A stretch of 64,000 nucleotides of DNA, taken from NCBI GenBank assembly GCA_964487115.1, contig CAZAPD010000090.1:7994-71993 (forward strand), given 5' to 3'. Within the stretch, counting starts at the first letter, position 1; each line of letters begins with the position of its first letter. The notes under the pieces are model-generated. The model had not been told where the DNA came from. It worked only from the letters and a program-made list of their open reading frames with translations, and searched no databases. Both the position numbers and the translations under genes were made by a program. Positions 4,762 through 27,904 of the stretch are shown here, piece after piece. This DNA comes from an uncultured Thermococci archaeon. Lineage in GTDB: Archaea; Methanobacteriota_B; Thermococci; Thermococcales; Thermococcaceae.

Positions 4762-4839
4762 GGGCCGGTAGCTCAGCCTGGTATGAGCGCCGCCCTCGCA
4801 AGGCGGAGGCCGCGGGTTCAAATCCCGCCCGGTCCACCA
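4762..4839 (+). tRNA. tRNA-Ala (anticodon CGC), CCA encoded
   Basis: Manual cloverleaf: acceptor GGGCCGG/CCGGTCC with the G3:U70 Ala identity pair, D arm GCTC/GAGC, anticodon arm CCGCC-CTCGCAA-GGCGG, T arm GCGGG-TTCAAAT-CCCGC, discriminator A, then CCA. Confidence 0.95.
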
Positions 4840-9400: not shown

Positions 9401-9633
9401 GATATATAAAACACAAAAGTAGGTTTAAAGTGTTTTTGCCCTCATGCTCCACCCGGGTTTGACAATTTCTTTCAAACTCACAACTTAAGTATCAGTATTA
9501 GGCTAATTATCCAATGGGGAGTTCAAATAATACTGCATTCAACTATTAGAGTTGTATACAATTTCGTATAAGCCATGTTAGAAATCAAAACTCAGTTCCT
9601 CCAATCAATTTTAAACCTTGAGGAGGGAGAAAA

Positions 9634-9804
9634 ATGATTTGGGAAGCAGAGCCTGATATTGTGGAGTATATCAATAAAAAAACAGGCATTAATATCGACA
9701 CCATTATTACCATCCTCAATGCAGAGGAAGCTTTTTTCATGATTCAAATTCAGAAAGCCTTGAAGACAAAGAAGAAAAGAGTTAAGGAGGAGTTGGTAAT
9801 ATGA
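9634..9804 (+). CDS. 56-aa hypothetical protein, translationally coupled to the giant ORF
   Basis: Below the ORF-track size cut-off. Sequence is MIWEAEPDIVEYINKKTGINIDTIITILNAEEAFFMIQIQKALKTKKKRVKEELVI. Strong SD GGAGGGAG (9622-9629) lies 4 nt upstream of the ATG. Its TGA (9802-9804) overlaps the ATG (9801-9803) of the giant ORF. Confidence 0.45.
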   Translation: MIWEAEPDIVEYINKKTGINIDTIITILNAEEAFFMIQIQKALKTKKKRVKEELVI

Positions 9805-9875
9805 AAAGAGCAACGACTGCTATGGTGATATTCTTAATACTCTTTTCACTGTTTTCATATCCTCTCCTCGCAGCC
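9801..9875 (+). other. Signal peptide of the giant protein
   Basis: MKRATTAMVIFLILFSLFSYPLLAA: basic n-region, hydrophobic core, A-x-A-like end. Confidence 0.7.
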
Positions 9876-12800
9876 AATATGACTAAAAGTCTCAATTCAA
9901 GCAAAAAGGAAGCCCCGACACTAAGATTAGATGAGGCTAATAATCCAGATGTAGCTGTAACATCGCTTTCATATTCCTATGTAAATGGTAGTCAGATGAT
10001 TGTCTCTGCAAGTGTTGTAAATTACGGAAACACGTCAGAGCCATTTAACACAACGTTTATTGCAATAGAGCCTCAAGAGTTACCTGAACCAAGTGAGGTA
10101 CCGTTTACCTGGATAGATATAAGCCAAATAGTCCAAAATGCCGTTCAGGTTTATAGTGGGGAGTATGTTTCAAACTGGAGTGCTGTACTACATGGGGATG
10201 ATAGTTATTTCATATACAAGCTACCATTTGTTCTCAATTACTTTGGAAGAAAAATAGTAAATATTTCAGTGAGCACAAATGGATATATCGAGCTTTTGGG
10301 CAAATGGGAACAACCAAGGTTCAGATCATCGATAGGTATCTATCCCGATTTAGAAGACTATCACGAAGATGTCATATTGGCGTTGGATGGAGATTTGGAA
10401 ACAGATGACGGCTATCTTGCAGTTGTGGGTTTTGCTGACAAAGTCGTCATAGAGTGGTTTGGTTCAACATTTCAGGATTATAATTCCGCTGATTATCCGA
10501 TAAATGTTCAGGTCATCATCTTCAGGAATGGTACAATTAGATGGAGCTACAAATTCCTTAGGTATTCAAGTGAAGAGTATAACATGTTTGCAGGATATTT
10601 CTCAAAAGTCTCTCTTGAGGATAGGGTAATATCCCAAGGAGAAAGAAAAAGCTTTGAGGTGCAACTTCCAGAGGTTACACCATTGACTATCAAATCCCAG
10701 ACTCCGGGGCTCTTAAATGAAGAGGAGACCACCACTACTATTATGCTTCCAATCAGGGATTTCTATGTGGAAGCTATTGCCGATAATGAAGAAGAGCTTA
10801 ATGATTACTACAGATTCAACAACATTGGAGAATTGTGGATATGGCCTGGCGACTACTGGATAGAGAATGCGACTATCGGAAATCTCACGGTGGGGGAATA
10901 TGTGGAGATTAATTTTACAGTAAAGAGCACATCACACCATCCAGAAACAACAATGATAAAGTTGTTGATGAACAATGAAAGCGTTAGAACTCTTTATGTA
11001 AATAGCTTAGATTTCATAAACGGAACAGCAAGAAAAAGCTTTTCTTGGAGAGTTCAAGGGGGAAAATACAGCCTGATGCTCGAACTTCAAAATCAGGGCG
11101 ATATTAACACAGAGAATAACTTGTTCTTATTAGGAAATTATTCTCTGCCCCAACCTAATTTTAAAGTCTTAAACTATTCAATTTCTATTCCAAACTGCGT
11201 TGGAGATTTAGCGGTTATAACGGCAAACGTGACAAATGATGGAGATGCCAACTGGAGTGATGTTGAAGTTAAATTTGTAGTTGGATACTCAAGTTCAGGG
11301 CAACTACCTATATCCAGAATTTCCTACATATCCCTGCCAGCAGGTGATACTAAGGAGGTATCAGCTTCGTTCTCTTTACAACCGGGTAATATAAGTTGGA
11401 TATACGTCCAAATAGATCCCTACGACAGAGTTATTGAGAGGAATGAAAATGACAACATTCTAAATGAAACATATATGGCAGAAATTTATTATCCAGACTT
11501 TACCGTTGAGTCAATATACACTCCCACAAAACCAAACACCGGAAACAGTTATACTATTAACATTACCATAGACAATCTGGGTCAGTGCTACAATGGAGGT
11601 ATTTATACATACCTCTATGAAAACGGTTCCCGTGTTGGATACAAATATGTTACAGGGATTCTTACCAATCCCAAAAATATTAGTATAGGCTGGACACCGA
11701 GAGAACCGGGTTTAAGGAATTTGACAGTTGTAATTGATCCATATAACTCAATTCCTGAAAAAAACGAAGCAAACAATGCCCTTTCAAAAATGGTATTTGT
11801 TGGAGGCCCAGATTTAATCATAACCAATGTAACCCTGCTCAGCTTTGATGGAATGGCAGGCAGTACAGCCACATTTAACGTTACCATAAAGAACACTGGA
11901 GAAGCCTTTACAGATCCATTCTATGTTGTAGCTAAGAGCTCTCTGGGCTCGGATTATGAATATATAAGAGGTATGAACAAGAATGAGGAGAAATGGATTA
12001 TTCTACAGCCCATTATTAACGGTGGTTCTTACAACCTGACGTTTATAGTAGATTACACGCATAATATTCCAGAGACCTATGAGAGCAATAACATGGCTTT
12101 GTATCCTATAAATGTCCCACGTCCGAATTTTATCATTGAAAGAGTGGAGATTCCTGATAACACTGTTGGAAACGTGCCAATCAACATTACAATCAAAAAC
12201 ATTGGTGCTCCTTATAATGCTACCAGAACTAACGTGATTGTGAAAATACAAGCTTCTGGTTACTCGAGCCTATACTTCGGAGGCATAATTGGGAGCAATG
12301 AAAGTGTCTGGAAAACAGGAGAGGTCGATATCAATCCTCCTGGTGGAACTATCAATGTTACAGTAAATCCATCCAAATTCATAAACGAGACTCACTTCTC
12401 AGACAATTCATATGTCTTGGATCATACAACAGGATACCCGGATTTGACTGTAAAAATCTCCGTTCCAAATGACGTGTCTGCAGGTGAAAGAATTCCAGTA
12501 AATGTAACTGTCAAAAATATCGGAAATGCAACACTAAGAATCTCCAAATATTCCTATTGGTATTATTATCTGCCATTATCGGTGAAGATAGTGTATGAGA
12601 ATGGTGAAACATACACCAGCAGATATGAATTAGCCCCGGCTACATTGGATCCAAATACAAGTATTATGCGCATATCATATTTCACCCTCAATGGCGGTCT
12701 TAACATCCTGAATGCTACTGTTGATGAGAATAATAGGTGGAAAGAATCCAATGAAAGCAATAATTATGCCACAGTTTCATTAAATGTCGCCATGCCAGAT

Positions 12801-15800
12801 TTTGTTGTCTCTAATTATTCTATCCAGGAGAGCCTGCTAAATGGTAGCGCCTATCTCTATAAGACTTATAGTTTGCCAGTTAATGTGACAAATAATGGGG
12901 CAAACTTTAGTTCTTACGTATATGTTCAGCTTTTAGATAACGGTAAATACTCTTCAAGCAGGAGTGTTGGACCGCTGAATCATGGAGAAACAAAAGAAGC
13001 GTTCCTATACTATATCCCTGCTCCCGGCCAGCATCTAATTACGCTCCTCGTAGACCCAGGCAACAACTGGATAGAATCCAACGAAACGAACAACAACAGA
13101 ATTGTAGCGAATTTATCGTTTGGATATCCAGAGTTAGTTCCTCTTGGAGTTACATGGACACCCTATAACTTTACATCCGGAGACAGTGTAACTTTTAAAA
13201 CATATATCAAAAACACCGGGCAAGCGTTCTATAGAAGCTTTTCAGTGCGCTTTGAGGTGTGGAATGAGACTTCAAGACTGACATATGGATATGGCACTCC
13301 TAATCCGTACAGTTGGTACTTCAAGGAAAATGAAACGAAAGAATTTGACTGGAGATGGTATAATGCAAAACCCGGCAATTTAACTCTTAAAATATTCGTG
13401 GATTACTATAATGCTATACCAGAATCGAATGAGAGCAACAACGAATATGAAGCTTATCTTGGGTCAATAGGAACCCCAGATTTTGAATTGAGCAATTTGA
13501 CTGTTGAAAATCTGGAGTATGGCAGGTATGCCAGAATAAATGTTAATCTAAGGAATCTTGGAGAGGCTATCTATAAAAACTTCCCAATAATGTTTAACAT
13601 AAGCAACACCATACGATATGTGTGGATTTATGGCATGAATTCCAATGAATCAAAACTAATAGGCACAAAATGGTATGTTGATAAAGTCGGCAACATTACT
13701 ATTCAAGTAAGAGCTGATCCAAATAACGCCATAATCGAATCTGATGAAGATAACAATGAAGTTTCAGGCAGTTATTATATTGAGGCACCAGATTTGGTCA
13801 TATCCTCCTACAAGTGGATTGAAGATGACCTGAGCAGAGGATATCTGACCTTCAATATTAATGTTACGAATAATGGAGGAAACTGTTACAGAGGATTCTA
13901 CGTTGGAATGTATATCGATGGTGAGCACAAAGCGGATGCATGGATACCCTCACTCATGAAAGGGGAAACCAAAGAAGTTACAGTAAAATGGCACTTTAAT
14001 GTAGGCGGCACTCACAATGTAACTCTAAGAGCGGATACATACGACACCATAGAAGAGAGCGATGAAAATAACAATGAAGTCAATACACAGGTTACAATTG
14101 CGCTCCCTGACCTCACAATTGAGAGCATAAGTCTGCCCGAAAATATGAATGCAAATGCATATTACCCAATTAACATCACGATTAGAAATGATGGGCTTAG
14201 GGATGTTGATGAATACTTTACTGTAGCGGTATTCGATGGGGATAGATTAATAGGAAGCAAAGGGTATAACACACTTAAAGCCGGCCAAAGCACAGCAATA
14301 CAACTTCAGATAAGACCGTATCCCGGAAACAGGACTATCAAAGCTATAGTTGATTATTACAACCACGTCTATGAAGTGAATGAGAGCAATAATGAAGCAG
14401 AGGCAAAAACCTACGTCAGTGCTCCAAATCTCAAAATTTTGTCTGTCTATGTCGGAAATTACACTTTTGCAGGCGATGAGGCAGTATTAACGGCGACCCT
14501 TGAAAACACGGGAGATGCAGAAGCAAAGAACTTCTACATTGGATTTAAGGCTGGGGATGTATATATAGGGGCTGCTCGTGTGGAAAGCTTAGCTCCAAAC
14601 AGCATCAAAAACGTTTCAATAACCTGGAAAATACAGGGGGGAGAGTATCCAATATACGCAATTGCAGACTATGGAAACTATCTGCGTGAATGGAATGAAA
14701 GTGACAACACAGCCAGCACTCCTGTTAAGGTTCCCACTCCAGATTTAACTGTAAGCAATTTAACATGGAGAGGGGAAAAACAGGTAGGGGCATTTATCAA
14801 CTTTTCGGCTGTAATTTCAAACATAGGAAACCCCACGAAGCAAGAATTCTATGTTTCACTGTATGTAGGAAACGAAGCTGTAGACCATGTGAAAGTCAAC
14901 GGACTTGAGGCTGGAGCAAGCATGGAGATAGATTTCCATCCATGGAAGGCAAAATATGGAAACCTAACAGTGGAAGTTAAAGTTGATACTTGGAACTTCG
15001 TTACAGAATCTAATGAGAACAACAATGTGGTTTTAAGCACCATAAACATTAAGGATATCTCAGCTCCTACAATAATGCAGATGTTTCCGGCAAATGGTAG
15101 TATAACGAACAGGAATATAACCGGAGTTTATCTTGTAGATGACGGAGCCGGAGTGGACTACTCTCTGAGCAAAATAGATATTATCAAAAATGGCACTCAA
15201 ATACCTGGGCATAGTGAATTTAGTGGAGGCTGGCTGGTCTTTATACCTGATTCGAAGCTTGGAGATGGTGAATATACAGTAAGAATAAAAGCAGTTGATA
15301 AAGCAGGCAATTCGGCAAACTATACTTACACATACACTCTTGACACAACACCACCAAGAATAAAAATCGAAGGAGTTTCAAATGGAGCAACATATAACTC
15401 CACCATATTCCCCCAAGTAACAGTGATGGACATCCATTTGAAAGAGTATAGCACACTCCTTAATGGGAAACCCTATAACGGTGAGCCTATAAAATTCGAT
15501 GGAAGCTACGTCCTCGAAGTTACCGCCTCTGACGAAGCTGGAAACAGTGCTCATGAAAAGATAACGTTTACCCTCAATGGGATACCTCTACCACCCTCAT
15601 CCCTCACTGTCAAATCTGAAGAAGGCTATGCTATCTTAACATGGAAACCAAGCCCAAGTAAAGATGTTTTGGGGTATTTTGTATATGTTAACGGAGTTAA
15701 GGTAACCCCTGAACCAATAGAAAGGTTAAACTTTACCCTTCCATATCAGGAGGCTGTTTATGAAGTCTCAGCAGTTGATTTTGCAGGACATGAGAGTGAG

Positions 15801-18800: not shown

Positions 18801-21800
18801 GTTGGAGGCATTGGCGGAGGAGGCGGAGATGGTATCAGTTATGAAGTCCAAGAATGTGAAAAAACAGAGGGTATAGCTCCAACACCCCAGAGTTCATCCA
18901 CCCGTATCAGTAAAGGAAGTATCCCAGATGTTAATGGAAAGAGCTGTGCATTTTTAAGAAATGTACCCGGAGAAGAGATATTACCAGCACAAACTGTTAA
19001 TCCCAATGAAGATCATAAAAACATGGTCTGCACTCGGATAAAACTTGAAATAAGACAGAGATTGACAATGGAGAGACAGGGTTTCAGAGCAGATTTGAAA
19101 TTCACCAACCTAGCAGGATACACAATAAGAAATCTAACGGTATACATTAAGTTCTTCGACGAAAACGGCACAGTTGCAGATGATAAATTCTTTGTCAGAG
19201 TGCTAACATTAGAGGGAATAAATTCCTTAAATGGTTCGTCTTTAGTTCCCAATGGAACAGGAATAGTCAATTGGCTGATAATACCAAAACCAGGAGCAGC
19301 TGGAGCATTGAGCACGCACTACACAGTCAAAGCATACATATTTGGAAAAGTCGGTAACACCACCTTGGAATACGAGAGCTGGCCTGAAGAGATAACTGTT
19401 GAACCTATGCCTATCCTACAGTTGGATTACATGCTCCCGAGATACGTGTATGGTGACAATCCAAAAACGCCAGAGGTAGAACCCCCAATACCCTTTGTCT
19501 TTGGAGTCAGAGTGAAGAACATAGGATACGGAGATGCCAAAAATCTGAGAATAGAGTCTGCTCAACCAAAGATAATAAGCAGTAACGTCCCAGCATATAT
19601 ATCATTCCGCATAATTGGAACATATATTAACGGAATTAAAGCGGCCAACAGTCTAACAGTTGACTTTGGAGATATACCTGCAGGGGAGAGCGCAACCGCA
19701 GCATGGATAATGACCGCTCAAGTAAGTGGGGAATTCGTGAGCTACAACGCTACATTTATCCATGAGGACCTATTGGGTGGAAACGAAACATCTCTAATAA
19801 GAACCCTAAGAACTCACACCCTATTCAAAGCTTTCAATGACACCATAAGAAATGATGGGATGATGGACTTTTTGGTTGATGATAATAGAGATCTGATTCC
19901 CGAGAGGATAATAGACTCCACTGGAGCAGATTTCGAGGTACTCCATGTAAATGCCACGATGAGAACAGAGTCAGACATGAAGATAATCGTACCAACAGCC
20001 ATATTTATAGACAAATGGACATACATAGGACTCAAATTCAATCCCGGGACTACGTTCAGGATTGTGCGCTCAGATGGCAGTATGCCCGTTTCATACTGGT
20101 ATGATGGTAAAACACTCCATATTTTAGATTATGGGACTCCAGAATTTTACTATATTAAGAGCAATAGAAAACCAGTGGCTCAAGCGACAATAACCTCACC
20201 GACAATTGCCAATAGGAGCGTAACTTTCGACGCTTCCTTAAGTTATGATCCGGATGGAAAAATAACGGATTATGCATGGAAAATAGGTAATCTAACCTTC
20301 CATCGGAAAGTATTGAACTACACCTTCACCAAACCGGGAATTTATAATGTCACACTTACCGTTAGAGATGATGGTGGTCTCTCAGCAACTAAATCCTTTA
20401 TTGTTACAGTTTATCTCGGGCCAAGATTTACTGAGAACTTCAGTGTGTCACCAAAATTGGGAGTTGTACCATTCAACATAACCGCAGTGTTAAATGTAAC
20501 AAATAGTGGGGATGCTGAAGGCATATACTCAGCAGCATTTTCAGTTGATGGAAAGCTCTTAAACATTTCCCAGGTAAGCATACAGCCAGATACAACGTAT
20601 TCCTTCGAATTCCGTGCGAAAATTTCAGAAATCGGTTATCACAATGTGACCATTAATAACTTCACTCAAGTCGTGGAAGCATACAAGAACGTTAGTATAT
20701 CTCAAATTAACAGGCAGAATTATTCAAAATACTTTGGATATTACAATTCGCTTCAATGGGATGAATTTAAGAAAGATTTTGAAAACTGGAGTGCCAACAT
20801 TCTTTCAAATATCACACTGCCTGTGGAGGAATTTGACAGGGTCATCTACATGAAAACAGGAAACTGGAGTATTGCAGAATATATTGAGAATCTTAACAAG
20901 ACTGAAGAGTCAGGATGGATTAAAGCTGTTTATACAAGAAATGTTACTTTAATTGGAATTACCAAGTGGAATTATACAGAGCTCCACCTAACACAAGTTG
21001 CAGAACTCTATGGAAACGCCACACACAAACTTGATGTAACAGCTCCTTCACTAACGGTGAGTCCAAGTAGCGGAATCTATCAATATATCCCAGAATTCAA
21101 TGTCACAGTCTGCGATGAAAGTAATGTCACCGTATGGGGCATTAGTATTACCAAAGGGACAAAAACGGCATTCACTTTGATTTCCATCAACAACACATGT
21201 TCCCTATGGAGAGGAATCTTACCACTGGATATTGCCAATAATACGGTAACAATAATAGCCGAAGACGAATTTGGAAACAGGGCTAATGAGACCCTGTGGA
21301 TATACATTAATCCAACAACACCAATAATCTACATTGAAAGTCCCAAATCCACAGTTTACAACAAAAAAACGCTTTGGTTCAATTATACAGTTATAGATAC
21401 CGATTTAATTGGTGTGAGAGCCTATTTAGATGGAACTCTAACAAGTACCTCAGTCAATGTCTCCAAACAACTAACAATGGACTACGGATACCATAACTTT
21501 ACAGTTACTGCATGGGATGTCTCATATAATGTTAGTAGAACCGTAATCTTCAGGATAAACAAACCCCCTATAGCCAACTTCACATGGACAGCAAACCATC
21601 TGAGGGTTAATTTCACGAGCACAAGTACAGATGAAGACGGCATAATACGTTATCTATGGGATTTCGGTGATGGTTCAAGTTCAAATGAAACAAACCCAAC
21701 CCATGTATATCCAAGGGGCGGCAGGTATAATGTAACACTAACAGTATGGGATGCCTACAGTGCCACTTCCACGATAACCAGAGCTATCCAAGTATTTGCA

Positions 21801-23198
21801 AATGTTAGCGAGAACAAAGAAGAAAAACACTTATTCACAAAATACTTTGGATTTTACAACACATCTTCATGGGAACCATTTAGAGAAGATTTTGGGCAGT
21901 GGAGCAGCGATATACTTAAAAACATGACTATACCAGAAGAGGAGCTCGATAGTATTTACTCCACAATTATTTCAAATTGGAGTCTCACATCCTACAGGGA
22001 AAACCTGATTATAGGAGCTTCTACAGGCTGGATAAACGCTACTTACAGAAGAGAGGTAATCATTAAAGGCTTCAGGGGATATGAAAATATTACACTGTCA
22101 ATAATTCAAACAGTTCATCTGTTCGGCAACGCAACACATGTTCCCGATACAGAGCCTCCCGAGATATCCATAACCTATCCAGAAAATAAGACTTACGACC
22201 ACAATATCACGTTAATTAAAGTTCAGGTCTATGATGTTTCTCCAGTTAAATGGGTCAGAGCGGAGCTGGATGGGAGAATATACCCAATGAATCACGTAAA
22301 TGATTCATGGTTGGCAACCGTTAATATCGGAGATGGAAAACACCTTCTCACAGTGTATGCCTCGGATGTATACGGGAATACTGGATATACCAACATTACA
22401 TTCACAGTCAATACCAGCATCAGAATAGTGGAAAGCAACAATACTACAGTTCAAGTGATTCCCGGTGAAGCTGAGAGTCAAATCCAAATCGGTGGCAGCT
22501 CAGTGACTATTAATATTAGCATTCAAGGTGTTGAATATTCATTTATATTCCATGCCCAGCCCTTGATTACAGTAGATGAGAGGATTAACAGCAAACCATG
22601 GATGATGATTTACAGTAACGCACAAATGGGAGAAACAGAAGAAAAAACTGAGGAGATCACCCAAGGAGGGACGGTTTATAGAGTGAGAAGAATTACAATT
22701 GAACTTCAAGTGGCGGAAGATGGATACGCTGTTTTAGTAGTACCGCTCCATCAGATGAAGCCAACGGAGATTAAGATAGATAAGGATGGCGTCGAGTACA
22801 AATTAACAAGAGAAAAGAGGGAATATGGTTACTTTGGAGTATTTGGGGACTATTTATACATAGTGGTTTTTGATGATCCAGTTATTAAAATAACAATGGA
22901 AGAGATAGACAGAACACGCACAATAGAATTACATAAAAGAATATGGACCAATCTCGGCATCATATGGGAAGCATATTATCTCAGAATGAATGAAAGATTC
23001 AACGAACTGGAAGCCAACATAACAAATATAAGCAGAATCCAGAAAGCTTTGAGCCTCCATAAGAAAGCACAAAGCTACTTTGATAAAGCAAATACCTACG
23101 ATCCAAGGATTAATCCAGCGATGTATGCAATATACATGAGAAAAGCATATATCACAGAAAAAAGGGCCCTGAAGCTACTTATTGAAAATCTCCATTAA
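9801..23198 (+). CDS. Giant secreted multi-domain surface protein (4465 aa): CARDB-like x13, Ig/FN3-like, CarboxypepD_reg-like, Cys-rich module, PKD x2
   Basis: Uninterrupted 13,398-nt ORF. AAGGAGG lies 10 nt upstream of the ATG. N-terminal signal peptide, domain motifs as listed in the sub-features, and very frequent N-x-S/T sequons. T6 terminator-like run just downstream. Confidence 0.9.
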   Translation: MKRATTAMVIFLILFSLFSYPLLAANMTKSLNSSKKEAPTLRLDEANNPDVAVTSLSYSYVNGSQMIVSASVVNYGNTSEPFNTTFIAIEPQELPEPSEVPFTWIDISQIVQNAVQVYSGEYVSNWSAVLHGDDSYFIYKLPFVLNYFGRKIVNISVSTNGYIELLGKWEQPRFRSSIGIYPDLEDYHEDVILALDGDLETDDGYLAVVGFADKVVIEWFGSTFQDYNSADYPINVQVIIFRNGTIRWSYKFLRYSSEEYNMFAGYFSKVSLEDRVISQGERKSFEVQLPEVTPLTIKSQTPGLLNEEETTTTIMLPIRDFYVEAIADNEEELNDYYRFNNIGELWIWPGDYWIENATIGNLTVGEYVEINFTVKSTSHHPETTMIKLLMNNESVRTLYVNSLDFINGTARKSFSWRVQGGKYSLMLELQNQGDINTENNLFLLGNYSLPQPNFKVLNYSISIPNCVGDLAVITANVTNDGDANWSDVEVKFVVGYSSSGQLPISRISYISLPAGDTKEVSASFSLQPGNISWIYVQIDPYDRVIERNENDNILNETYMAEIYYPDFTVESIYTPTKPNTGNSYTINITIDNLGQCYNGGIYTYLYENGSRVGYKYVTGILTNPKNISIGWTPREPGLRNLTVVIDPYNSIPEKNEANNALSKMVFVGGPDLIITNVTLLSFDGMAGSTATFNVTIKNTGEAFTDPFYVVAKSSLGSDYEYIRGMNKNEEKWIILQPIINGGSYNLTFIVDYTHNIPETYESNNMALYPINVPRPNFIIERVEIPDNTVGNVPINITIKNIGAPYNATRTNVIVKIQASGYSSLYFGGIIGSNESVWKTGEVDINPPGGTINVTVNPSKFINETHFSDNSYVLDHTTGYPDLTVKISVPNDVSAGERIPVNVTVKNIGNATLRISKYSYWYYYLPLSVKIVYENGETYTSRYELAPATLDPNTSIMRISYFTLNGGLNILNATVDENNRWKESNESNNYATVSLNVAMPDFVVSNYSIQESLLNGSAYLYKTYSLPVNVTNNGANFSSYVYVQLLDNGKYSSSRSVGPLNHGETKEAFLYYIPAPGQHLITLLVDPGNNWIESNETNNNRIVANLSFGYPELVPLGVTWTPYNFTSGDSVTFKTYIKNTGQAFYRSFSVRFEVWNETSRLTYGYGTPNPYSWYFKENETKEFDWRWYNAKPGNLTLKIFVDYYNAIPESNESNNEYEAYLGSIGTPDFELSNLTVENLEYGRYARINVNLRNLGEAIYKNFPIMFNISNTIRYVWIYGMNSNESKLIGTKWYVDKVGNITIQVRADPNNAIIESDEDNNEVSGSYYIEAPDLVISSYKWIEDDLSRGYLTFNINVTNNGGNCYRGFYVGMYIDGEHKADAWIPSLMKGETKEVTVKWHFNVGGTHNVTLRADTYDTIEESDENNNEVNTQVTIALPDLTIESISLPENMNANAYYPINITIRNDGLRDVDEYFTVAVFDGDRLIGSKGYNTLKAGQSTAIQLQIRPYPGNRTIKAIVDYYNHVYEVNESNNEAEAKTYVSAPNLKILSVYVGNYTFAGDEAVLTATLENTGDAEAKNFYIGFKAGDVYIGAARVESLAPNSIKNVSITWKIQGGEYPIYAIADYGNYLREWNESDNTASTPVKVPTPDLTVSNLTWRGEKQVGAFINFSAVISNIGNPTKQEFYVSLYVGNEAVDHVKVNGLEAGASMEIDFHPWKAKYGNLTVEVKVDTWNFVTESNENNNVVLSTINIKDISAPTIMQMFPANGSITNRNITGVYLVDDGAGVDYSLSKIDIIKNGTQIPGHSEFSGGWLVFIPDSKLGDGEYTVRIKAVDKAGNSANYTYTYTLDTTPPRIKIEGVSNGATYNSTIFPQVTVMDIHLKEYSTLLNGKPYNGEPIKFDGSYVLEVTASDEAGNSAHEKITFTLNGIPLPPSSLTVKSEEGYAILTWKPSPSKDVLGYFVYVNGVKVTPEPIERLNFTLPYQEAVYEVSAVDFAGHESEKVLAEPIIVSLVSPQNPLLAENYPANLTFHLKNMNGAINVSVDIQLIDSLGNVIKDIDYGRLQFAPNETKQLVLTFITPEDLRAVQVIVSNGGKSYTTFPVKTYRTSLPNITISSILSNFPEVIPVNITNFGSAELTVSGSASLGRITGETNYIRLKPGENGTLYIYLTPKDIGEEILTLNLTYRTFGDAKTFKITKTINVTSPILNPITLSHEQIVKGKIATVFAIFKNLGSAPLTVNKAIIRLVDGNSTIVEKTVYKTARLYSEGTISFYTTFVVPANAPDYATLEVTVYGMDGYKLNYSKREEVQLLKPPYNANVTIGKEIYSPGETIHVTGYAFNESGFLPNVTVKLSFARDDFVRTFLVKTDSYGRFTFNFTPYATEGGTFVISATHPKVISLEHDAQFKVLGIVPLVRHYTLQVPIKFRYKLQIPLRNVGDEPLNITVTSNSSIFHVDILKNITLMPGEIKRISVVISSNQSKNETFSLTFRSRYNNESVQINIITLPEKPILRASPKVIDVGVKPGEVLTKSVEVENLGFAPAGNVTIILPNWSFVTLASNFTTIEAGEKEAFTIFIAPTENNTGKFTGYVKLSAKDAEVKIPIRVIVTPNQTGNVRFILVDPEGNPIPNGKITISNEYYTETKVADKNGTVLFSNVPVGLYKYYAFGEEIVPKDGNIIIDAGIEKNVTVILLKSPLKVEFEVYPVTVDDVYTIVHEIEYETYLTIPYLKVDYGQGYIIVNSSYLKEHGVVEFRGYVTIQNTNPYLSVVNVTFRPIIVDHYTEIVFAVDRIDEIKPGENVTVPYVIRVYQHRSPDIDPCKPQRIVISLPSLAYCEDGKWHVPPADEISFTIKLACVDCFWSITAVIKDVAVALSGPLGDVIQGGVKIGKAGIMIVRTSKVVGDVADKILNIQGQIDFGAKCYAAATSGCQEDASSCIQKVVDTIIGFIPVVNDIWGIYNDIKGAIENCGNCLFKDSCVKKCTPIQVPPINSIPIYIGISGGGDVGGIGGGGGDGISYEVQECEKTEGIAPTPQSSSTRISKGSIPDVNGKSCAFLRNVPGEEILPAQTVNPNEDHKNMVCTRIKLEIRQRLTMERQGFRADLKFTNLAGYTIRNLTVYIKFFDENGTVADDKFFVRVLTLEGINSLNGSSLVPNGTGIVNWLIIPKPGAAGALSTHYTVKAYIFGKVGNTTLEYESWPEEITVEPMPILQLDYMLPRYVYGDNPKTPEVEPPIPFVFGVRVKNIGYGDAKNLRIESAQPKIISSNVPAYISFRIIGTYINGIKAANSLTVDFGDIPAGESATAAWIMTAQVSGEFVSYNATFIHEDLLGGNETSLIRTLRTHTLFKAFNDTIRNDGMMDFLVDDNRDLIPERIIDSTGADFEVLHVNATMRTESDMKIIVPTAIFIDKWTYIGLKFNPGTTFRIVRSDGSMPVSYWYDGKTLHILDYGTPEFYYIKSNRKPVAQATITSPTIANRSVTFDASLSYDPDGKITDYAWKIGNLTFHRKVLNYTFTKPGIYNVTLTVRDDGGLSATKSFIVTVYLGPRFTENFSVSPKLGVVPFNITAVLNVTNSGDAEGIYSAAFSVDGKLLNISQVSIQPDTTYSFEFRAKISEIGYHNVTINNFTQVVEAYKNVSISQINRQNYSKYFGYYNSLQWDEFKKDFENWSANILSNITLPVEEFDRVIYMKTGNWSIAEYIENLNKTEESGWIKAVYTRNVTLIGITKWNYTELHLTQVAELYGNATHKLDVTAPSLTVSPSSGIYQYIPEFNVTVCDESNVTVWGISITKGTKTAFTLISINNTCSLWRGILPLDIANNTVTIIAEDEFGNRANETLWIYINPTTPIIYIESPKSTVYNKKTLWFNYTVIDTDLIGVRAYLDGTLTSTSVNVSKQLTMDYGYHNFTVTAWDVSYNVSRTVIFRINKPPIANFTWTANHLRVNFTSTSTDEDGIIRYLWDFGDGSSSNETNPTHVYPRGGRYNVTLTVWDAYSATSTITRAIQVFANVSENKEEKHLFTKYFGFYNTSSWEPFREDFGQWSSDILKNMTIPEEELDSIYSTIISNWSLTSYRENLIIGASTGWINATYRREVIIKGFRGYENITLSIIQTVHLFGNATHVPDTEPPEISITYPENKTYDHNITLIKVQVYDVSPVKWVRAELDGRIYPMNHVNDSWLATVNIGDGKHLLTVYASDVYGNTGYTNITFTVNTSIRIVESNNTTVQVIPGEAESQIQIGGSSVTINISIQGVEYSFIFHAQPLITVDERINSKPWMMIYSNAQMGETEEKTEEITQGGTVYRVRRITIELQVAEDGYAVLVVPLHQMKPTEIKIDKDGVEYKLTREKREYGYFGVFGDYLYIVVFDDPVIKITMEEIDRTRTIELHKRIWTNLGIIWEAYYLRMNERFNELEANITNISRIQKALSLHKKAQSYFDKANTYDPRINPAMYAIYMRKAYITEKRALKLLIENLH
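10848..15056 (+). repeat. Array of 13 tandem, diverged CARDB-like domain units (period about 312-357 nt)
   Basis: Each unit opens with P[DN][FL]xhxxh (PDFTVESIY, PDLIITNVT, PDLTVKISV...). Each contains N.G (NDGDA, NTGEA, NIGNA...) and ends in an acidic/Asn cap. The caps are NTENN (about 11110), ERNENDN (11447), EKNEANN (11770), TYESNN (12082), ETHFSDNS (12395), ESNESNN (12752), ESNETNN (13082), ESNESNN (13433), ESDEDNN (13746), ESDENNN (14063), VNESNN (14382), WNESDN (14700) and ESNENNN (15015). Confidence 0.8.
15057..15830 (+). other. Ig-like domains followed by an FN3-like domain
   Basis: DISAPTI...YTVRIKAVDKAGNS...DTTPPRIKIEGV...LEVTASDEAGNS, then PPSSLTVKSEEGYAILTWKPSPSKDVLGYFVYVNG (FN3-like). 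Confidence 0.5.
17631..17872 (+). other. Carboxypeptidase-regulatory-like (CarboxypepD_reg) beta-sandwich domain
   Basis: GNVRFILVDPEGNPIPNGKITISNEYYTETKVADKNGTVLFSNVPVGLYKYYAF. Confidence 0.6.
18240..19030 (+). other. Cys-rich module with embedded Gly-rich linker (18784-18840)
   Basis: 14 Cys within about 265 aa (CKPQ, AYCED, ACVDC, AKCY, SGCQ, SSCI, ENCGNC, DSCVKKC, QECE, KSCA, VCTR) in a protein otherwise almost Cys-free. Includes GISGGGDVGGIGGGGGDGIS. Confidence 0.7.
20170..20415 (+). other. PKD domain 1
   Basis: VTFDASLSYDPDGKITDYAWKIGN...YNVTLTVRDDGGLSAT. Confidence 0.8.
21558..21797 (+). other. PKD domain 2
   Basis: VNFTSTSTDEDGIIRYLWDFGDGSSSNETNPTHVYPRGGRYNVTLTVWDAYSAT. Confidence 0.85.
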
Positions 23199-23206
23199 CT
23201 TTTAAA

Positions 23207-23212
23207 TTTTTT
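23207..23212 (+). terminator. Oligo-T (T6) archaeal-type terminator candidate after the giant ORF
   Basis: TTTAAATTTTTTAC lies 9 nt after the stop codon. Confidence 0.4.
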
Positions 23213-23310
23213 ACAGATTTTAATTTATGTTATGTTGCATCCTATCCTCCATGATTTCTGCACCATCATATCTTGGGATGTTCTAAATTCGCTAAATATA
23301 ATACGATGGA

Positions 23311-23324
23311 TATAAAAATATAAA
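23311..23324 (+). promoter_or_regulatory. TATA-box candidate for the STAND gene pair
   Basis: TATAAAAATATAAA lies 28-41 nt upstream of the preferred ATG at 23352, with an AGAGGG SD in between. Confidence 0.35.
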
Positions 23325-23351
23325 GTGCATAATTACATAGAGGGTTCATGT

Positions 23352-25613
23352 ATGAGTATGAAAGCCTCATTATTAATGAGATCATTATCCAACGAAACTA
23401 ATCTGCATATACTCTCCATACTTAAATCCGGCGCGTTTAATCCCAGAGAACTTGCCCGCATTCTGCAAAAAGATGAAACGGATATTTCAAGAAGACTAAG
23501 ACTGCTGGAAAAGGCAGGATTAGTGAAAGGTCAGTGGATGCGAATAGGAAAAAAGAATGTAAAAGTGTATTCGCTGAAGGTAGATGAAGTCAAAATAAGC
23601 TTCAAGCCAACAGAAGTGATAATAAGAACGACTACAAATGAAAACTACCAGATACCTATATTTGACAGGAAAGTTCCTGAGGTTAATATGTTCTTTGGAC
23701 GGCAAGCTGAAATAGAAAAAATAACATCAACTCCAGCTCGTGTCATACTCATCTATGGAATAGCAGGTATTGGAAAGACAACTCTAATAGCAAAAATATT
23801 CAATAATGCTTTTTGGTACCAGATAAATGAGCTCGATAGCTTTGACTATATCATATGGCAGTTTGGTTTATACCTCAACACCCTCGGATATTCTCTACTC
23901 CTTGATTATCTACGCAGCGGAGGGAAAAATGAGAGGGATATATTCGAACTCATACTCGATGGAATGGAAACAACGGGAGCTCAGGTAGTTATTGATGATG
24001 CCCATAAATGCTCTGACGATAAGATAATACAGCTCTTTACGTATCTGACACCAAGGCTTCAAAAAGCAAAGCTTGTAATAATATCAAGGGAAAGGATAAA
24101 TTTAGGTTTGAAAAATGTGATGTATTTACATCTCAAAGGTTTAAGTGCAGAGGATGCCTATCAGCTTTTGATATCCAAAGGAGCAAGAATAGAACCGGAA
24201 AAATTTGCAGAGATCTACCACATAAGTTATGGACACCCTCTAATATTGCTCCTATTTGCTGAAACATATCCTGATGAAGAGGTCAAGATGCACAACTTCC
24301 TTGATTTCTTGTTTACTGAAATCTACCAAAAGCTGAAAGAGGATGAAAAGTTAATGATTCAAATACTCTCTCTTTTTGATGAACCTTTAGAATACGAGGA
24401 GATAAGGGCCTTATATCAAAAAAAGAATGTTTTTACAGTTCTATACTCCCTTACAAACAAGGGAATAGTGGAAAAAAGGGGAGAGGCTTATGCGCTCCAT
24501 GATCTACTGAGAGGACTTGCAAAAGAACTTACAGACATCGATGAGCGAGAATACTACTTAAAATACATTAATCATCTGCTGACAAAGAAAACAGCCAAAG
24601 CTTTTATGAAAGCTCTCCAGTATGCCGTCAAACTTGGGGACGAGGAGAAGATTAGGGAACTAATCGAAATCAGGCTAAGAAGATTCAAACGGATAATTCA
24701 AGATTTTCCAGATTCGTATATGCGAATTTTAATTCAAATCAAGGATAATCCTTATGCCAAAGAGGAGCTCGGTAATATATACTTCCAGAAAGGTCTATTC
24801 AATAAAGCCCTTACTCTCTGGCTTGAAATTAAGGACAAAGTCGAAGGTATTCACAAAGGCGATGTTCTAAGCTCTTTGGTTGATATATACATAGAATTAA
24901 ACGAATTTGAAAAAGCTGAGGAATATCTCAGGGAACTGGAAAAACTTTTAGCCAAAACGCCAGATTTAAAAATTCAACTTTGGTATTATATCCAACTTAC
25001 AAAATTTGAATATTACAAAAATAACCATGAAAATGCTCTCAAAAGCGCATTTAAAGAGCTTGAAATAGTAAGGAAAATGAGCCCATATCCAGAGCTTGAA
25101 AGTCTCGTATTACTTCACATCGGGGATATATATACAGGCATGGAAAAGGTTAAAGATGGAATCAAATATTACATCCAATCCCTCAAACTGGCTAAGGCAT
25201 ATAATCTGGCATTCTTAGAGCATGTCTCATATATGGAGCTAACAAAAGCATATTTCATCCTTAAAGATTATAGAAGAGCTATAGAATATGGAACAAAAGC
25301 AGTTCAATACTTCATCAGGGTCAGAAACTATCGTAGGGCTATCGACGCATTGGCATATAGATGCCTCTCATACGCTGGATTACTAAAGCTCAAAGAAGCC
25401 GAAAAGGATGCCGAAGAAATGATAAAGATAGCCCAAACAACAAACTATCCATTAGCATGGGCAGGATACATATTCTTAGGAGTAATTAAAGAGTTAAGGG
25501 GAGAGAATGGGCAGGAATATTTCAAACTGGGTGAAGAGAGACTGAAAGAATATCCTTGGTTGTATGAGTCAGTTATGGAAGAGGTTAACAGGGTGGAATT
25601 AAAGGAGGAGTAG
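23352..25613 (+). CDS. Winged-HTH + STAND (NB-ARC/archaeal-ATPase-like) P-loop NTPase + TPR-repeat protein, paralog 1
   Basis: ORF track 23325-25613. The ATG at 23352 is preferred because it gives the same 13-aa lead before NETNL as paralog 2. ArsR-like wHTH (NLHILSILKSGAFNPRELARILQKDETDISRRLRLLEKAGLV). FFGRQAEIEKI then Walker A GIAGIGKTT. Walker B VVIDDAH. NB-ARC-type GxP motif YGHPLILLL. C-terminal about 300 aa are TPR-like helical repeats. Confidence 0.8.
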   Translation: MSMKASLLMRSLSNETNLHILSILKSGAFNPRELARILQKDETDISRRLRLLEKAGLVKGQWMRIGKKNVKVYSLKVDEVKISFKPTEVIIRTTTNENYQIPIFDRKVPEVNMFFGRQAEIEKITSTPARVILIYGIAGIGKTTLIAKIFNNAFWYQINELDSFDYIIWQFGLYLNTLGYSLLLDYLRSGGKNERDIFELILDGMETTGAQVVIDDAHKCSDDKIIQLFTYLTPRLQKAKLVIISRERINLGLKNVMYLHLKGLSAEDAYQLLISKGARIEPEKFAEIYHISYGHPLILLLFAETYPDEEVKMHNFLDFLFTEIYQKLKEDEKLMIQILSLFDEPLEYEEIRALYQKKNVFTVLYSLTNKGIVEKRGEAYALHDLLRGLAKELTDIDEREYYLKYINHLLTKKTAKAFMKALQYAVKLGDEEKIRELIEIRLRRFKRIIQDFPDSYMRILIQIKDNPYAKEELGNIYFQKGLFNKALTLWLEIKDKVEGIHKGDVLSSLVDIYIELNEFEKAEEYLRELEKLLAKTPDLKIQLWYYIQLTKFEYYKNNHENALKSAFKELEIVRKMSPYPELESLVLLHIGDIYTGMEKVKDGIKYYIQSLKLAKAYNLAFLEHVSYMELTKAYFILKDYRRAIEYGTKAVQYFIRVRNYRRAIDALAYRCLSYAGLLKLKEAEKDAEEMIKIAQTTNYPLAWAGYIFLGVIKELRGENGQEYFKLGEERLKEYPWLYESVMEEVNRVELKEE

Positions 25614-27904
25614 TGGTGACGCAGGACATTTCATTTTTAAGGAGCATTCTCAATGAGACTAATCTTCAGATACTAACCCTTCTGAGAACCACCTCTCTTA
25701 ACACAAGAGAAATAGCACGACTTCTCCAGAAGGATGAAACTTATATCTCAAGATGCTTAAGGACACTTGAAAGGCTTGGGATTGTCGAAGGCGAATGGAT
25801 GCGAGTTAGAGGAAAAAATGTGAGGATATATTCTTTAAAACTTGAAGAACTCAAAATAAGCTTTGGTTTGGAGGGTTTAAAAGTTATTATCGGAAAGAGA
25901 CACCTACAATACTCCCCTCCCCTCTTCTCGAACAGAGCTCCAGAGGTCAAAGTTTTTGTTGGACGGAAAAAAGAACTGGAATTCCTATCCAGCAGTTATC
26001 CCGTGGTTATTGTATATGGGATGGCGGGTATTGGCAAATCCACATTAGTTGCCAAGGCATATAGAGATGCATTTTGGTATCGAATAAATGGAGATGAGAG
26101 CATTGAATATGTAATCTGGCAGTTGGCTCTATATCTAAACCTCCTTGGATATTCTGATGTTATCGAATATCTCAGAGGGGGTGGGAAGGAATTAGCTGTT
26201 ATAAAGGAGCTAACCGCAGAAGGTATCAACAGAACGAAAGGTATTATAGTTTTTGATGACCTTCATAGATGTGATGATGAGGATATCATGTCATTCATAA
26301 GATTTTTAGCCTCAAATATTGAAAATGGAAAATTAATCCTTATCTCACGAGAAAAACCTCAGATAGGATACAACGAAAAGATGCTGGTAATACATCTAAA
26401 GGGATTAGAGAGTAGAGATGCCTATGAACTTTTGAAACTCAAACTGCCAAATCTCACACTTGATGAATTCACGAAAATTTATCATGCCACTTTCGGCCAC
26501 CCTCTGGCACTTTTGTTGGCATCAGAAATGCCCGATTTTCACGGAGGGAACTTTTTTGAATATCTCTTTAGAGAGGTTTATGAAACACTAAAAGAAGATG
26601 AGAAATTAATGCTACAGATACTTTCTCTCTTTGATGAACCTGTTGAATATGAAATCTTAAAAAAACTCTCTGGTCATAATACGTTTTTGACCCTTTACTC
26701 TCTTCTGAATAAAGGACTTGTTGAAAGAGTGGGAGATAGTTATCATGTCCATGACCTCCTTAGAGCCCTCCTCAATGAGGTAAGAGACATCGAAGAAAAA
26801 AAGTATTATAGCAAATATATCTCGTATCTGCTCAAAAAGAACAACGCCAAAGATTTTCTAACGGCATTTAAATATGCAATACGCCTTGAAGATGAGGAAC
26901 TTATTAAGAAGTTAACTGAGGTGAGAATCCGGGAATATTGGAGGATTGCCCTCGATTTTCCCACCGCATATTTAAAGCTTCTCGATAGAATCAAACATAT
27001 TCCTTATGCCAAAAAAGAAATCGCAAGGATATACTTTAACAAAGGATTCTTTGAAAAAGCCCTACAGCTGTGGCTTGAAGCCAGTGATAAGGTTGAAGAG
27101 GATTTTCATAAATTTGATGTTATTATGATGCTTATAGATGTCTTCTGTGAGCTTGGTAAAATTGACGAGGCTGAGAAATATATGACAGAGCTTGAGGAAA
27201 TATACTTAAGAAATGCAGAAGACCCCTATATCAGATTGGGCTATTATATTGAGCTAACAAAAATAGCCACATTTAAAAGAGAACGCGAGAGAGCCTTGGA
27301 AAACGCATTTAAAGAGCTTGAGGCAGTTCGAAATTACCCAAAGGTGTATCCTGAGCTGGAGGCACTTGTACTTTATCACATTGGATATCTCTATGTTGAA
27401 CTCGGTGAATTAGAAAAAGCTTCAAAATATTACGGGGAGGGTTTAAAGGTTTCTAAGGCATATTCCCTGCCTTTTATGGAAAATCTTGGATACATCCAGC
27501 TCGGAATAATTAACTACACACTGGGAGATTACGAAACCGCAGTCTTCCATTCAGAAAAAGCTGCAAAATACTTTTTACATACTAAGAACTACAGGCGAGC
27601 AATCGATGCACTTTTTAGAATAACACTTTCGCTTATGGGTTTAAAACAGTTTAAAGAAGCTGAAGAGAAGGCAAAGGAAATTTTGGAGCTTGCTCAAACA
27701 ACTAATTATCCCCTCGGATGGTGCGCTTATGTGCTTTTGGGCATTGCAAAGGAACTGCAGGGAAAAGAGGGAAAAACAGAGATAGAACAGGGATTAGAAA
27801 AAATTAAAGACAACACGTATCTGCATAAGGGGCTCTTTGAAGAGCTTTCTTTAGTTCTTGATGAAAACAGCCTTAAGAGATTGTTCTCTACTGCCAGATT
27901 CTGA
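25613..27904 (+). CDS. Winged-HTH + STAND P-loop NTPase + TPR-repeat protein, paralog 2
   Basis: 763 aa, collinear with paralog 1; roughly half the residues are identical by eye over the N-terminal 300 aa. Walker A GMAGIGKST, Walker B IIVFDDLH, FGHPLALLL. GTG start overlaps the TAG of paralog 1 by 1 nt. The 3' end overlaps the convergent fumarase alpha gene by 17 nt. Confidence 0.8.
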   Translation: MVTQDISFLRSILNETNLQILTLLRTTSLNTREIARLLQKDETYISRCLRTLERLGIVEGEWMRVRGKNVRIYSLKLEELKISFGLEGLKVIIGKRHLQYSPPLFSNRAPEVKVFVGRKKELEFLSSSYPVVIVYGMAGIGKSTLVAKAYRDAFWYRINGDESIEYVIWQLALYLNLLGYSDVIEYLRGGGKELAVIKELTAEGINRTKGIIVFDDLHRCDDEDIMSFIRFLASNIENGKLILISREKPQIGYNEKMLVIHLKGLESRDAYELLKLKLPNLTLDEFTKIYHATFGHPLALLLASEMPDFHGGNFFEYLFREVYETLKEDEKLMLQILSLFDEPVEYEILKKLSGHNTFLTLYSLLNKGLVERVGDSYHVHDLLRALLNEVRDIEEKKYYSKYISYLLKKNNAKDFLTAFKYAIRLEDEELIKKLTEVRIREYWRIALDFPTAYLKLLDRIKHIPYAKKEIARIYFNKGFFEKALQLWLEASDKVEEDFHKFDVIMMLIDVFCELGKIDEAEKYMTELEEIYLRNAEDPYIRLGYYIELTKIATFKRERERALENAFKELEAVRNYPKVYPELEALVLYHIGYLYVELGELEKASKYYGEGLKVSKAYSLPFMENLGYIQLGIINYTLGDYETAVFHSEKAAKYFLHTKNYRRAIDALFRITLSLMGLKQFKEAEEKAKEILELAQTTNYPLGWCAYVLLGIAKELQGKEGKTEIEQGLEKIKDNTYLHKGLFEELSLVLDENSLKRLFSTARF

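Follow-up and report, generated by a model that had tools for sequence, protein, structure and literature searches.

A predicted surface-protein and STAND gene island between the fumarate hydratase genes fumA and fumB of an uncultured Thermococci archaeon

Here, we report an 18.5-kb gene block lying between the genes for the alpha (fumA) and beta (fumB) subunits of a fumarate hydratase in an uncultured Thermococci archaeon. The whole stretch of DNA analyzed, hereafter the window, comprises 64,000 nucleotides (nt) of contig CAZAPD010000090.1 (GenBank assembly GCA_964487115.1; positions 7,994 to 71,993, forward strand). The block carries a small open reading frame (ORF), a gene for a predicted giant surface protein, and two tandem genes for STAND ATPases of the PH0952 family. 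It is probably an old, modular, laterally exchanged surface-protein/STAND island that was inserted precisely at the fumA/fumB overlap in an ancestral Thermococcus.

Organization of the locus

The block and its edges contain the following features (window coordinates).

8897-9400, minus strand: fumB, 167 amino acids (aa), intact; Pfam Fumerase_C (PF05683), E = 4e-41.
9423-9436, minus strand: candidate archaeal transcription factor B recognition element (BRE) and TATA box for fumB, AAAAACA CTTTAAAC, at -36 to -23 from the ATG; read from the sequence, putative promoter.
9455-9479, no strand: palindrome GGGTTTGA-N9-TCAAACTC in the divergent intergenic region between fumB and the cargo; conserved.
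9634-9804, plus strand: small ORF of 56 aa with a Shine-Dalgarno sequence in front; 4-nt overlap with the start of the giant gene.
9801-23198, plus strand: giant surface protein gene, 4465 aa, a single unbroken 13.4-kb ORF.
23199-23324, plus strand: intergenic region between the giant gene and STAND1, with T-runs after the giant stop codon (putative terminator) and a TATA-like A/T-rich GATATAAAAATATAAAG ahead of STAND1 (putative promoter).
23325-25613, plus strand: STAND1, 762 aa, with an ArsR-type winged helix-turn-helix (wHTH), an NB-ARC-type ATPase core (NOD), and a TPR sensor; PH0952 family.
25613-27904, plus strand: STAND2, 763 aa, a paralog of STAND1 with the same architecture; 1-nt overlap with the STAND1 stop codon.
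27888-27904, no strand: 17-nt antisense 3' overlap of STAND2 and fumA, the right junction of the island.
27888-28751, minus strand: fumA, 287 aa, intact; Pfam Fumerase (PF05681), E = 4e-97.

The distance between fumA and fumB is 18,487 nt, and all genuine ORFs between them lie on the plus strand; the only minus-strand ORFs of at least 100 aa in this gap are within the giant ORF. An initial annotation, made by a model from the sequence, had described a gap of about 18.5 kb with plus-strand contents, placed between minus-strand alpha (27888-28751) and beta (8897-9400) genes, and had put the stop codon of the second STAND paralog 17 nt inside the alpha 3' end. All of this was borne out, with the coordinates correct, the identities confirmed by Pfam and NCBIfam, the STAND2 stop at 27904, and the fumA 3' end at 27888. 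The same fumA-island-fumB layout recurs in two independent assemblies of this organism (ENA ERZ27262694 and Logan SRR8542060) and is thus not an assembly artifact.

The small ORF, preceded by GGAGGAGGGAG, is called as a gene in public assemblies, and STAND1 begins with the ATG at 23352 in public gene calls (753 aa; P0001). GGAGGAG lies 3 to 9 nt ahead of the GTG start of STAND2. From the 4-nt overlap and the Shine-Dalgarno sequences, the small ORF and the giant gene would form one operon, and the two STAND genes, behind the T-runs and the A/T-rich box, would form another.

Fumarase subunits and the ancestral junction

Both subunits pass NCBIfam fumarate hydratase equivalogs (fumB, NF006253, 278.5 bits against a cut-off of 244; fumA, NF004885, 359.7 bits against a cut-off of 276) and fail the tartrate dehydratase equivalogs (alpha model, 234.6 against 365 for fumA; TtdB model, 168 against 264 for fumB). 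fumA shows three Cys-containing motifs, ICQDTG, PCPP, and QCWAHR, and its C-terminus (...IWQ*) is as in unsplit genomes. fumB aligns end to end with split and unsplit orthologs, and its sole change is at the N-terminus, which reads MRKL... for the ancestral MAVKL.... Neither fumarase protein is truncated by the split.

An adjacent, co-transcribed alpha-beta organization, typical of such enzymes but not strictly defining, is absent here, given the intervening distance and opposite-strand genes. The initial annotation had described adjacency as normal for two-subunit class I enzymes. fumB lies directly downstream of fumA on the same strand in 49 of the 61 non-Thermococcales loci recovered with fumA. 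Adjacency with overlapping codons spans Palaeococcus, Pyrococcus, Thermoplasmata, Asgard, Bathyarchaeia, and bacteria. The overlap measures 4 to 10 nt across Thermococcus kodakarensis, Thermococcus gammatolerans, Pyrococcus sp. ST04, and Palaeococcus pacificus, and the two genes are also adjacent in two Thermococci metagenome-assembled genomes (L008 and L009; L numbers denote comparison loci).

In T. kodakarensis, six genes are consecutive (ApbA, PhoU_div, 2-Hacid_dh, fumA, fumB, and malic enzyme), and fumA and fumB overlap by 10 nt. The window likewise has ApbA, PhoU_div, and 2-Hacid_dh beside fumA, and its malic enzyme gene lies two genes past fumB. T. gammatolerans matches T. kodakarensis on the right side and, like the window, has a CoA-transferase gene convergent on fumB. 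The initial annotation had stated that the T. kodakarensis malic enzyme (TK1963) and ketopantoate reductase (TK1968) genes are only a few genes apart and had proposed a compact ancestral locus lacking the block; the six-gene run fits the former, and the overlapping pairs in T. kodakarensis, T. gammatolerans, ST04, and Palaeococcus agree with the latter.

At the ancestral junction, the start of fumB (ATG/TTG GCA GTG A) is embedded in the end of fumA (TGG CAG TGA), a 10-nt overlap. Split alleles retain ...WQ* at the end of fumA and have a new ATG in fumB, without the ancestral residues AV. The end of fumA was thus kept and the start of fumB rebuilt, which places the break no more than a few nucleotides from the stop codon of fumA. 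Insertion of the block into an ancestrally compact, co-transcribed fumA-fumB pair is supported by these comparisons of synteny.

The left flank (4890-9400) is a C4-acid metabolic cluster with an Ldh_2-family dehydrogenase (best match L-sulfolactate/malate dehydrogenase, below cut-off), a malic enzyme, and a FadX-like CoA-transferase that is convergent with fumB and overlaps it by 10 nt. The left neighbor of fumB varies by lineage (CoA-transferase, malic enzyme, or Usp).

A shared, modular island

At least 10 other Thermococcus genomes have a homologous island at the same junctions, with differing cargo. Homologous islands between fumA and fumB were identified in L003 to L007, Thermococcus paralvinellae, Thermococcus barophilus CH5, Thermococcus sp. 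SY098, Thermococcus sp. MAR1, and a metagenome contig (L081). The closest relative, L003 (fumA 81% identical), has STAND2, STAND1, and the giant gene in the same order at 80 to 83% identity. The 3' overlap of STAND and fumA is 17 nt in the window, T. paralvinellae, and L007 and 11 nt in MAR1, and the conserved block upstream of fumB is homologous in all split loci, MAR1 included.

The cargo of L081 consists of a 540-aa gene, a 209-aa gene, the small ORF, and a CARDB giant; that of SY098 and T. barophilus consists of a 533-aa gene, a 208-aa gene, the small ORF, and a NosD/beta-helix protein of 1741 to 1901 aa. The 540-aa protein of the relatives has a weak transglutaminase-core match. T. paralvinellae, MAR1, and L007 have no giant, and L007 retains a 203-aa ORF that matches an immunoglobulin (Ig) domain of the giant. 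The window and L003 lack the 540-aa and 209-aa genes and have two STANDs.

Homologs of the small ORF (42 to 57% identity) occur in every split locus covering this region, whatever the cargo (window 9634-9804; L071 9581-9739; L077 7555-7704; L079 7512-7664; L080 7509-7652; L081 10001-10141), with ORF lengths of about 50 aa and the consensus ...VEYIsrsTGidkdTv.evLrAEEAFFMmQIkKAL. Three of the four members bear a weak likeness to the N-terminal helices of HU (Bac_DNA_binding, best E = 0.005), and a search of the small ORF against the PDB gave no usable match.

According to the initial annotation, a block generally shared by related genomes would have told against an insertion. Close relatives do share the block, which removes the idea of an insertion peculiar to this genome; deeper relatives are without it, and there the expectation of an insertion stood. 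The block is a nested mosaic and not one unit, and it is neither recent nor private.

Lateral movement

In T. gammatolerans and ST04, a CARDB giant (4490 and 4497 aa, respectively) is immediately followed by a STAND gene, more than 0.5 Mb from an intact fumAB. Between these two genera, the giants are 64% and the STANDs 69% identical, the latter value exceeding most STAND comparisons within Thermococcus, which suggests intergeneric transfer of the cassette. The ST04 cassette (L073 1-12280) has a G+C content of 48 to 50%, against 40% at the ST04 fumarase locus and 44% in the sequence adjoining the cassette. This mismatch, opposite in direction to that in the window, argues that the giant-plus-STAND pair moves laterally.

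Genes of the right flank of the window are 81 to 93% identical to those of L005 and 54 to 82% identical to those of L006, L007, and T. paralvinellae. STAND1 runs counter to the flank, with 59% identity to L005 versus 63 to 64% to L006, L007, and T. paralvinellae. In neighbor-joining trees of the flank, fumA, and fumB, which are single-gene or three-gene trees without support values and thus indicative only, the split MAR1 grouped with the unsplit T. kodakarensis and T. gammatolerans. The marks of a horizontally exchanged island, namely, patchy distribution, atypical composition, and gene-tree incongruence, are all present.

Pfam searches of the insert ORFs found no integrase, transposase, or recombinase and no replication or virion genes, and no direct or inverted repeats were found flanking the insert edges. 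The sole tRNA found by a scan of the window (4762-4839) is 4.6 kb away, and Rfam found nothing in the insert. Searches for STAND relatives gave none on viral contigs and, on plasmids, only distant NACHT matches from cyanobacteria.

Two neighbors of the unlinked cassettes were observed as well. A serine-recombinase/TnpB (IS607-like) pair lies 3.6 kb downstream of the cassette in ST04. In T. gammatolerans, the STAND gene is followed directly by a second giant (L072 12599-22334; 4610 aa, beta-helix/Big domains), so that one STAND is sandwiched between two giant surface-protein genes.

Base composition

Computed over the full window, a check that the initial annotation had proposed, G+C content and third-position G+C deviate in the block, and tetranucleotide usage deviates in its giant gene. 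The G+C content is 38.7% in the insert, 45.4% in the left flank, 43.6% in the right flank, and 44.0% in the whole remainder of the window. The hand-counted value of about 39% inside therefore stood; that of about 50% in the flanks did not, since 46 to 49% is reached only by genes immediately adjoining the insert and the overall contrast is 5 to 6 points. In 1-kb bins, the G+C fraction is 0.389 inside versus 0.439 outside (Mann-Whitney P = 1.2e-7), and the insert is the lowest-GC 18.5-kb block within the window. G+C at third codon positions (GC3) is 0.36 in all three large insert genes versus about 0.44 elsewhere, and about five other window genes are equally low. Tetranucleotide usage deviates in the giant gene (r, 0.62 to 0.72, versus 0.87 to 0.96 elsewhere) and is near normal in the STAND genes (r, 0.82 to 0.88).

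Elsewhere in the window, a 456-aa ORF without a Pfam match (44671-46041; G+C content, 37.4%; G+C at first codon positions, 0.38) lies within a second AT-rich patch (45 to 48 kb), adjoining DUF2110 and TFIIE-alpha genes. A tRNA-Ala(CGC) at 4762-4839 and a C/D-box small RNA at 53380-53439 that matches Rfam sR22 (74 bits) both fit a Thermococcales origin.

Predicted giant surface protein

The giant matches Pfam CARDB in 11 stretches (E = 2e-154), PKD in 2, and Big_13, with weak MG2 and CarboxypepD_reg matches; in all, it has at least 11 CARDB repeats along with a pair of PKD domains and several Ig domains of the Big type. Its sole strongly hydrophobic segment is N-terminal and signal-like (aa 4 to 28), neither a C-terminal transmembrane segment nor a sorting signal was seen as a recognizable anchor, and there are 156 N-x-S/T sequons. 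These features point to a secreted, heavily N-glycosylated adhesin or envelope protein. Orthologs are those of T. gammatolerans and ST04, at 46 to 47% identity.

A Cys-rich segment (aa 2816 to 3077; window 18246-19031) holds 13 of the 19 Cys residues and a Gly run. Next comes a domain of about 300 aa (aa 3076 to 3374; window 19026-19922) with 38% identity to the N-terminus of a 1148-aa metagenomic protein (P0168). A homolog search with aa 2690 to 3460 returned P0168 alone and also missed the known 4490-aa-class orthologs, which makes that search uninformative, and an AlphaFold2 (AF2) model of the domain (mean predicted local distance difference test [pLDDT], 42; two-sequence alignment) was discarded. 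Six unassigned pieces of the giant gave no Pfam match at cut-off.

The C-terminal segment opens with an Ig domain (aa 4116 to 4203; window 22146-22409) that recurs, at about 39% identity and in the same relative position near the C-terminus, in the unrelated NosD/beta-helix giants of SY098 and T. barophilus; counterparts lie at L079 2119-2385, L077 2610-2879, and L007 13603-13875 (the stand-alone 203-aa ORF). This suggests a C-terminal module shared among surface giants whose N-terminal bodies have been exchanged.

STAND proteins

Pfam assigns HTH_5 (23.9 bits; cut-off, 22), NB-ARC (27.4; cut-off, 23.5), and TPR_12 to STAND1 and HTH_5 (27.3; cut-off, 22), NB-ARC (28.8; cut-off, 23.5), and TPR_MalT to STAND2. 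Their Walker A/B motifs are GIAGIGKT/VVIDD and GMAGIGKS/IVFDD, respectively, and the two proteins are about 47% identical. With phmmer, STAND1 matches PDB entry 6MFV (PH0952 of Pyrococcus horikoshii) at E = 8.7e-202. The best Foldseek match of its AF2 model (41 sequences; pLDDT, 87) is the same entry (E = 3e-44; target-normalized TM-score, 0.93; 48% identity over about 645 residues). The sequence and fold features of the PH0952 clade are thus present: a NOD with Walker A and B motifs, a TPR sensor and the PH0952 fold, and an N-terminal ArsR-type wHTH.

In a neighbor-joining tree, STAND1 grouped with single-copy STANDs of the fum locus, and STAND2 joined the fumA-proximal copies of L003 and L005 in another, deep clade. 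The fum-locus STAND of MAR1 is closest to STAND2 (58 to 60% identity) and belongs to the same clade. MAR1 has this STAND2-type gene at the fum locus (L080 5117-7417) and an apparent second, STAND1-type gene (P0014) on a different contig of 1.39 Mb.

PADLOC matched only the wHTH of Csa3/CasR-type regulators in the STANDs and found no Avs model; this result and the wHTH N-terminus speak against membership of the Avs/NLR-like defense proteins. Literature searches found no account of a giant surface protein linked to a PH0952-type STAND, and those on Thermococcus giant, CARDB, or STAND loci and on PH0950 to PH0954 found nothing relevant.

Region upstream of fumB

Upstream of the fumB ATG, CTTTAAAC lies at -30 to -23 and TTTTATATA at -11 to -3. 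The former lines up with a box, TTAAAC/TTTAAG (TTAAAC/GCTTTAAGG), that is conserved ahead of fumB in five further split genomes. In Thermococcales promoters, the TATA box sits about 26 nt ahead of the transcription start site, so CTTTAAAC is at the right distance for a near-leaderless fumB transcript. It is plausible that fumB is transcribed from its own BRE/TATA-like AAAAACA-CTTTAAAC, giving a nearly leaderless mRNA. TTTTATATA is too near the ATG to serve that start codon. Of the two promoter-like elements that the initial annotation had placed within 40 nt of the fumB ATG, only the well-positioned and conserved CTTTAAAC is retained as a candidate.

The palindrome, GGGTTTGA-N9-TCAAACCC, has 8-bp arms and is conserved upstream of fumB in most split loci. 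Its core, GTTTGA-N9-TCAAAC, occurs once in the window versus 0.07 times expected by chance, and it is found once each, in the same place, in L007 (16434-16454), L071 (7273-7293), L077 (9991-10011), and L079 (9934-9954); MAR1 has a degenerate form, GGTTTG-N12-CAAACC. The exact palindrome has no other copy in the window and none in the T. gammatolerans and ST04 loci examined, and any tie to the STANDs is therefore conjecture. Speculatively, it is a candidate operator for the divergent fumB and cargo promoters.

Origin of the island

Five other readings of the block were weighed against the old, exchanged island proposed here. That the split is ancestral and adjacency derived, or that the locus is a chimera, has in its favor the bare fact of separation and nothing more; the taxonomic breadth of overlapping adjacency, from Palaeococcus to bacteria, and the occurrence of the split layout both in two assemblies of this organism and in complete genomes (T. 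paralvinellae, T. barophilus CH5, and SY098) leave it extremely improbable. A recent horizontal insertion, made in one step and found in this genome only, would account for the lower G+C and GC3 of the insert and for its abrupt right edge with the 17-nt overlap, but L003 shares both the gene set and its order, at an identity equal to that of its fumA, and homologous junctions exist in at least 10 genomes, so we consider this reading highly improbable. Somewhat better placed, yet still very unlikely, is an antiviral defense island with the STANDs as Avs/NLR-like sensors and the giant as decoy or barrier. Avs proteins have the same NOD-plus-TPR architecture, Avs3 (8DGC) is among the Foldseek matches (E = 6e-9), and the locus is variable and laterally exchanged, as defense islands are. 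However, the PADLOC result gives only a Csa3/CasR-type wHTH, the N-terminal domain is a predicted DNA-binding wHTH in place of a nuclease or protease effector, Avs3 gives a TM-score of 0.19 versus the target-normalized 0.93 for PH0952, and relatives are missing from viral records and are limited on plasmids to the distant cyanobacterial NACHT proteins.

Repeated site-specific insertion, in which a mobile cassette independently hit the fumA/fumB junction in different Thermococcus lineages, fits the position of MAR1 in the flank, fumA, and fumB trees, beside the unsplit T. kodakarensis and T. gammatolerans, and the resulting non-monophyly of split genomes. It also fits the end of the MAR1 fumA (...VRV* and not ...VWQ*), the overlap there of 11 nt and not 17 nt, and the two different STAND lineages at the fumA-proximal position. 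This reading is nonetheless unlikely: there is no integrase or transposase in or beside the island and no att-like repeat, T. gammatolerans and ST04 carry the same cassette at unrelated loci, and in every split locus, MAR1 included, the left junction (the sequence upstream of fumB with its palindrome) is homologous, which fits one origin and spread by homologous recombination. Rather unlikely, too, is a more ambitious reading in which the island is a self-contained module, with the giant under control of a PH0952-type STAND, that spreads by homologous or site-directed recombination at fumA/fumB and whose palindrome is an operator co-regulating the surface operon and fumB. If true, it would couple C4-dicarboxylate metabolism to envelope remodeling and give the PH0952 family, a structurally characterized functional orphan, its first regulon.

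Several points weigh against the old, exchanged island as well. The split genomes are not monophyletic in the neighbor-joining trees, so one insertion followed by vertical descent alone is insufficient and lateral spread or repeated loss is needed. No recombinase, tRNA target, or terminal repeats occur at the edges, so no insertion mechanism is indicated. The compositional signal is moderate, and the odd, N/T/S/I/Y-rich amino acid composition of the giant may lie behind part of the tetranucleotide deviation. In several relatives (T. paralvinellae, SY098, L006, and L007), the island is not AT-richer than its flanks; in T. barophilus, it is GC-richer (48% versus 41%); and among the relatives compared, it is clearly AT-rich only in the window and L003. 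For the proposed regulation of the giant operon by the STANDs, the evidence is their conserved linkage.

Under the old-island reading, which we regard as probable, the island would have been inserted at the overlapping fumA/fumB junction and then remodeled and exchanged among lineages. The most economical mechanism of spread in these naturally recombining archaea would be homologous recombination by way of the flanks, which are conserved at fumA and fumB. From fumB, the fullest island comprises a secreted, transglutaminase-like protein of 540 aa, a membrane protein of 209 aa, the ORF of about 50 aa, a giant, and one or two PH0952-type STANDs, followed by fumA. A simpler cassette with STAND2 next to fumA, as in MAR1, probably later received the giant-plus-STAND1 unit, and the lower G+C suggests a lower-GC member of the Thermococcales as its donor. 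fumB would be expressed from its own BRE/TATA, fumA would remain with its upstream genes, and the heteromeric enzyme would still assemble. By analogy with MalT and PH0952, a ligand bound by the TPR sensor would cause exchange of ADP for ATP and oligomerization, and the wHTH would then control the operon of the small ORF and the giant. The fumA/fumB junction would, in this case, be a recombination hot spot for surface-protein diversity in Thermococcus. The linkage of PH0952 homologs to the small ORF and giant genes in at least 12 Thermococcales loci offers a testable candidate regulon in genetically tractable relatives.

Comparison with known systems

Every component falls into a known family, the block shows none of the features that define mobile elements or defense systems, and current understanding is not overturned; the contribution is useful but modest and lies in the conserved linkage of a PH0952-type STAND with a giant and in the precise cut of a coupled operon. 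Integrated elements of the TKV and pTN3 types are the known comparison class in Thermococcales. Like them, the block is multi-kilobase, atypical in composition, and patchy among close relatives; unlike them, it has no integrase, tRNA target, flanking direct repeats, or replication or virion genes, and it does not qualify as an integrase-borne integrative element.

The giant resembles the repeat-rich CARDB/PKD/Big adhesins of bacteria and archaea in its signal peptide and long Ig-like arrays and differs from them in having no recognizable anchor and in its Cys-rich segment and 300-aa domain without a Pfam match. The surface giant at the fum locus itself varies between genomes, being of the CARDB or the beta-helix type.

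PH0952, a structural model for STAND autoinhibition, has the same domain order as the window STANDs: an N-terminal ArsR-like wHTH, the NOD (nucleotide-binding, helical, and winged-helix domains; NBD-HD-WHD), an arm, and a TPR sensor. The window differs in having two tandem paralogs. Lisa et al. (2019, PMC6468293) describe PH0952 as a protein predicted to be a transcription factor, in which an ArsR-like effector domain is combined with a TPR sensor; their article, as searched, names neither its inducer nor its target genes, and to that extent there is no function to transfer to the window proteins. As a working model, we adopted MalT of Escherichia coli, a STAND activator with a helical-repeat sensor that oligomerizes on inducer and ATP and turns on nearby operons. 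The STAND1 model matches the MalT-type structure 8BOB in Foldseek (E = 4e-10; target-normalized TM-score, 0.74). Identity to MalT is about 16%, a window STAND scores 24 bits on the NCBIfam MalT equivalog against a cut-off of 537, and the DNA-binding domain is C-terminal and of the LuxR type in MalT versus N-terminal and of the ArsR type in the STANDs.

Compared with two-subunit class I fumarate hydratase operons such as that of T. kodakarensis, the window is alike in its intact subunits and in the neighbors on the fumA side. It differs in that the pair is 18.5 kb apart, translational coupling is impossible, and fumB has a start and an upstream region of its own. The locus offers a clean example from nature in which a two-subunit enzyme operon with translational coupling was cut at the 10-nt overlap and both halves survived.

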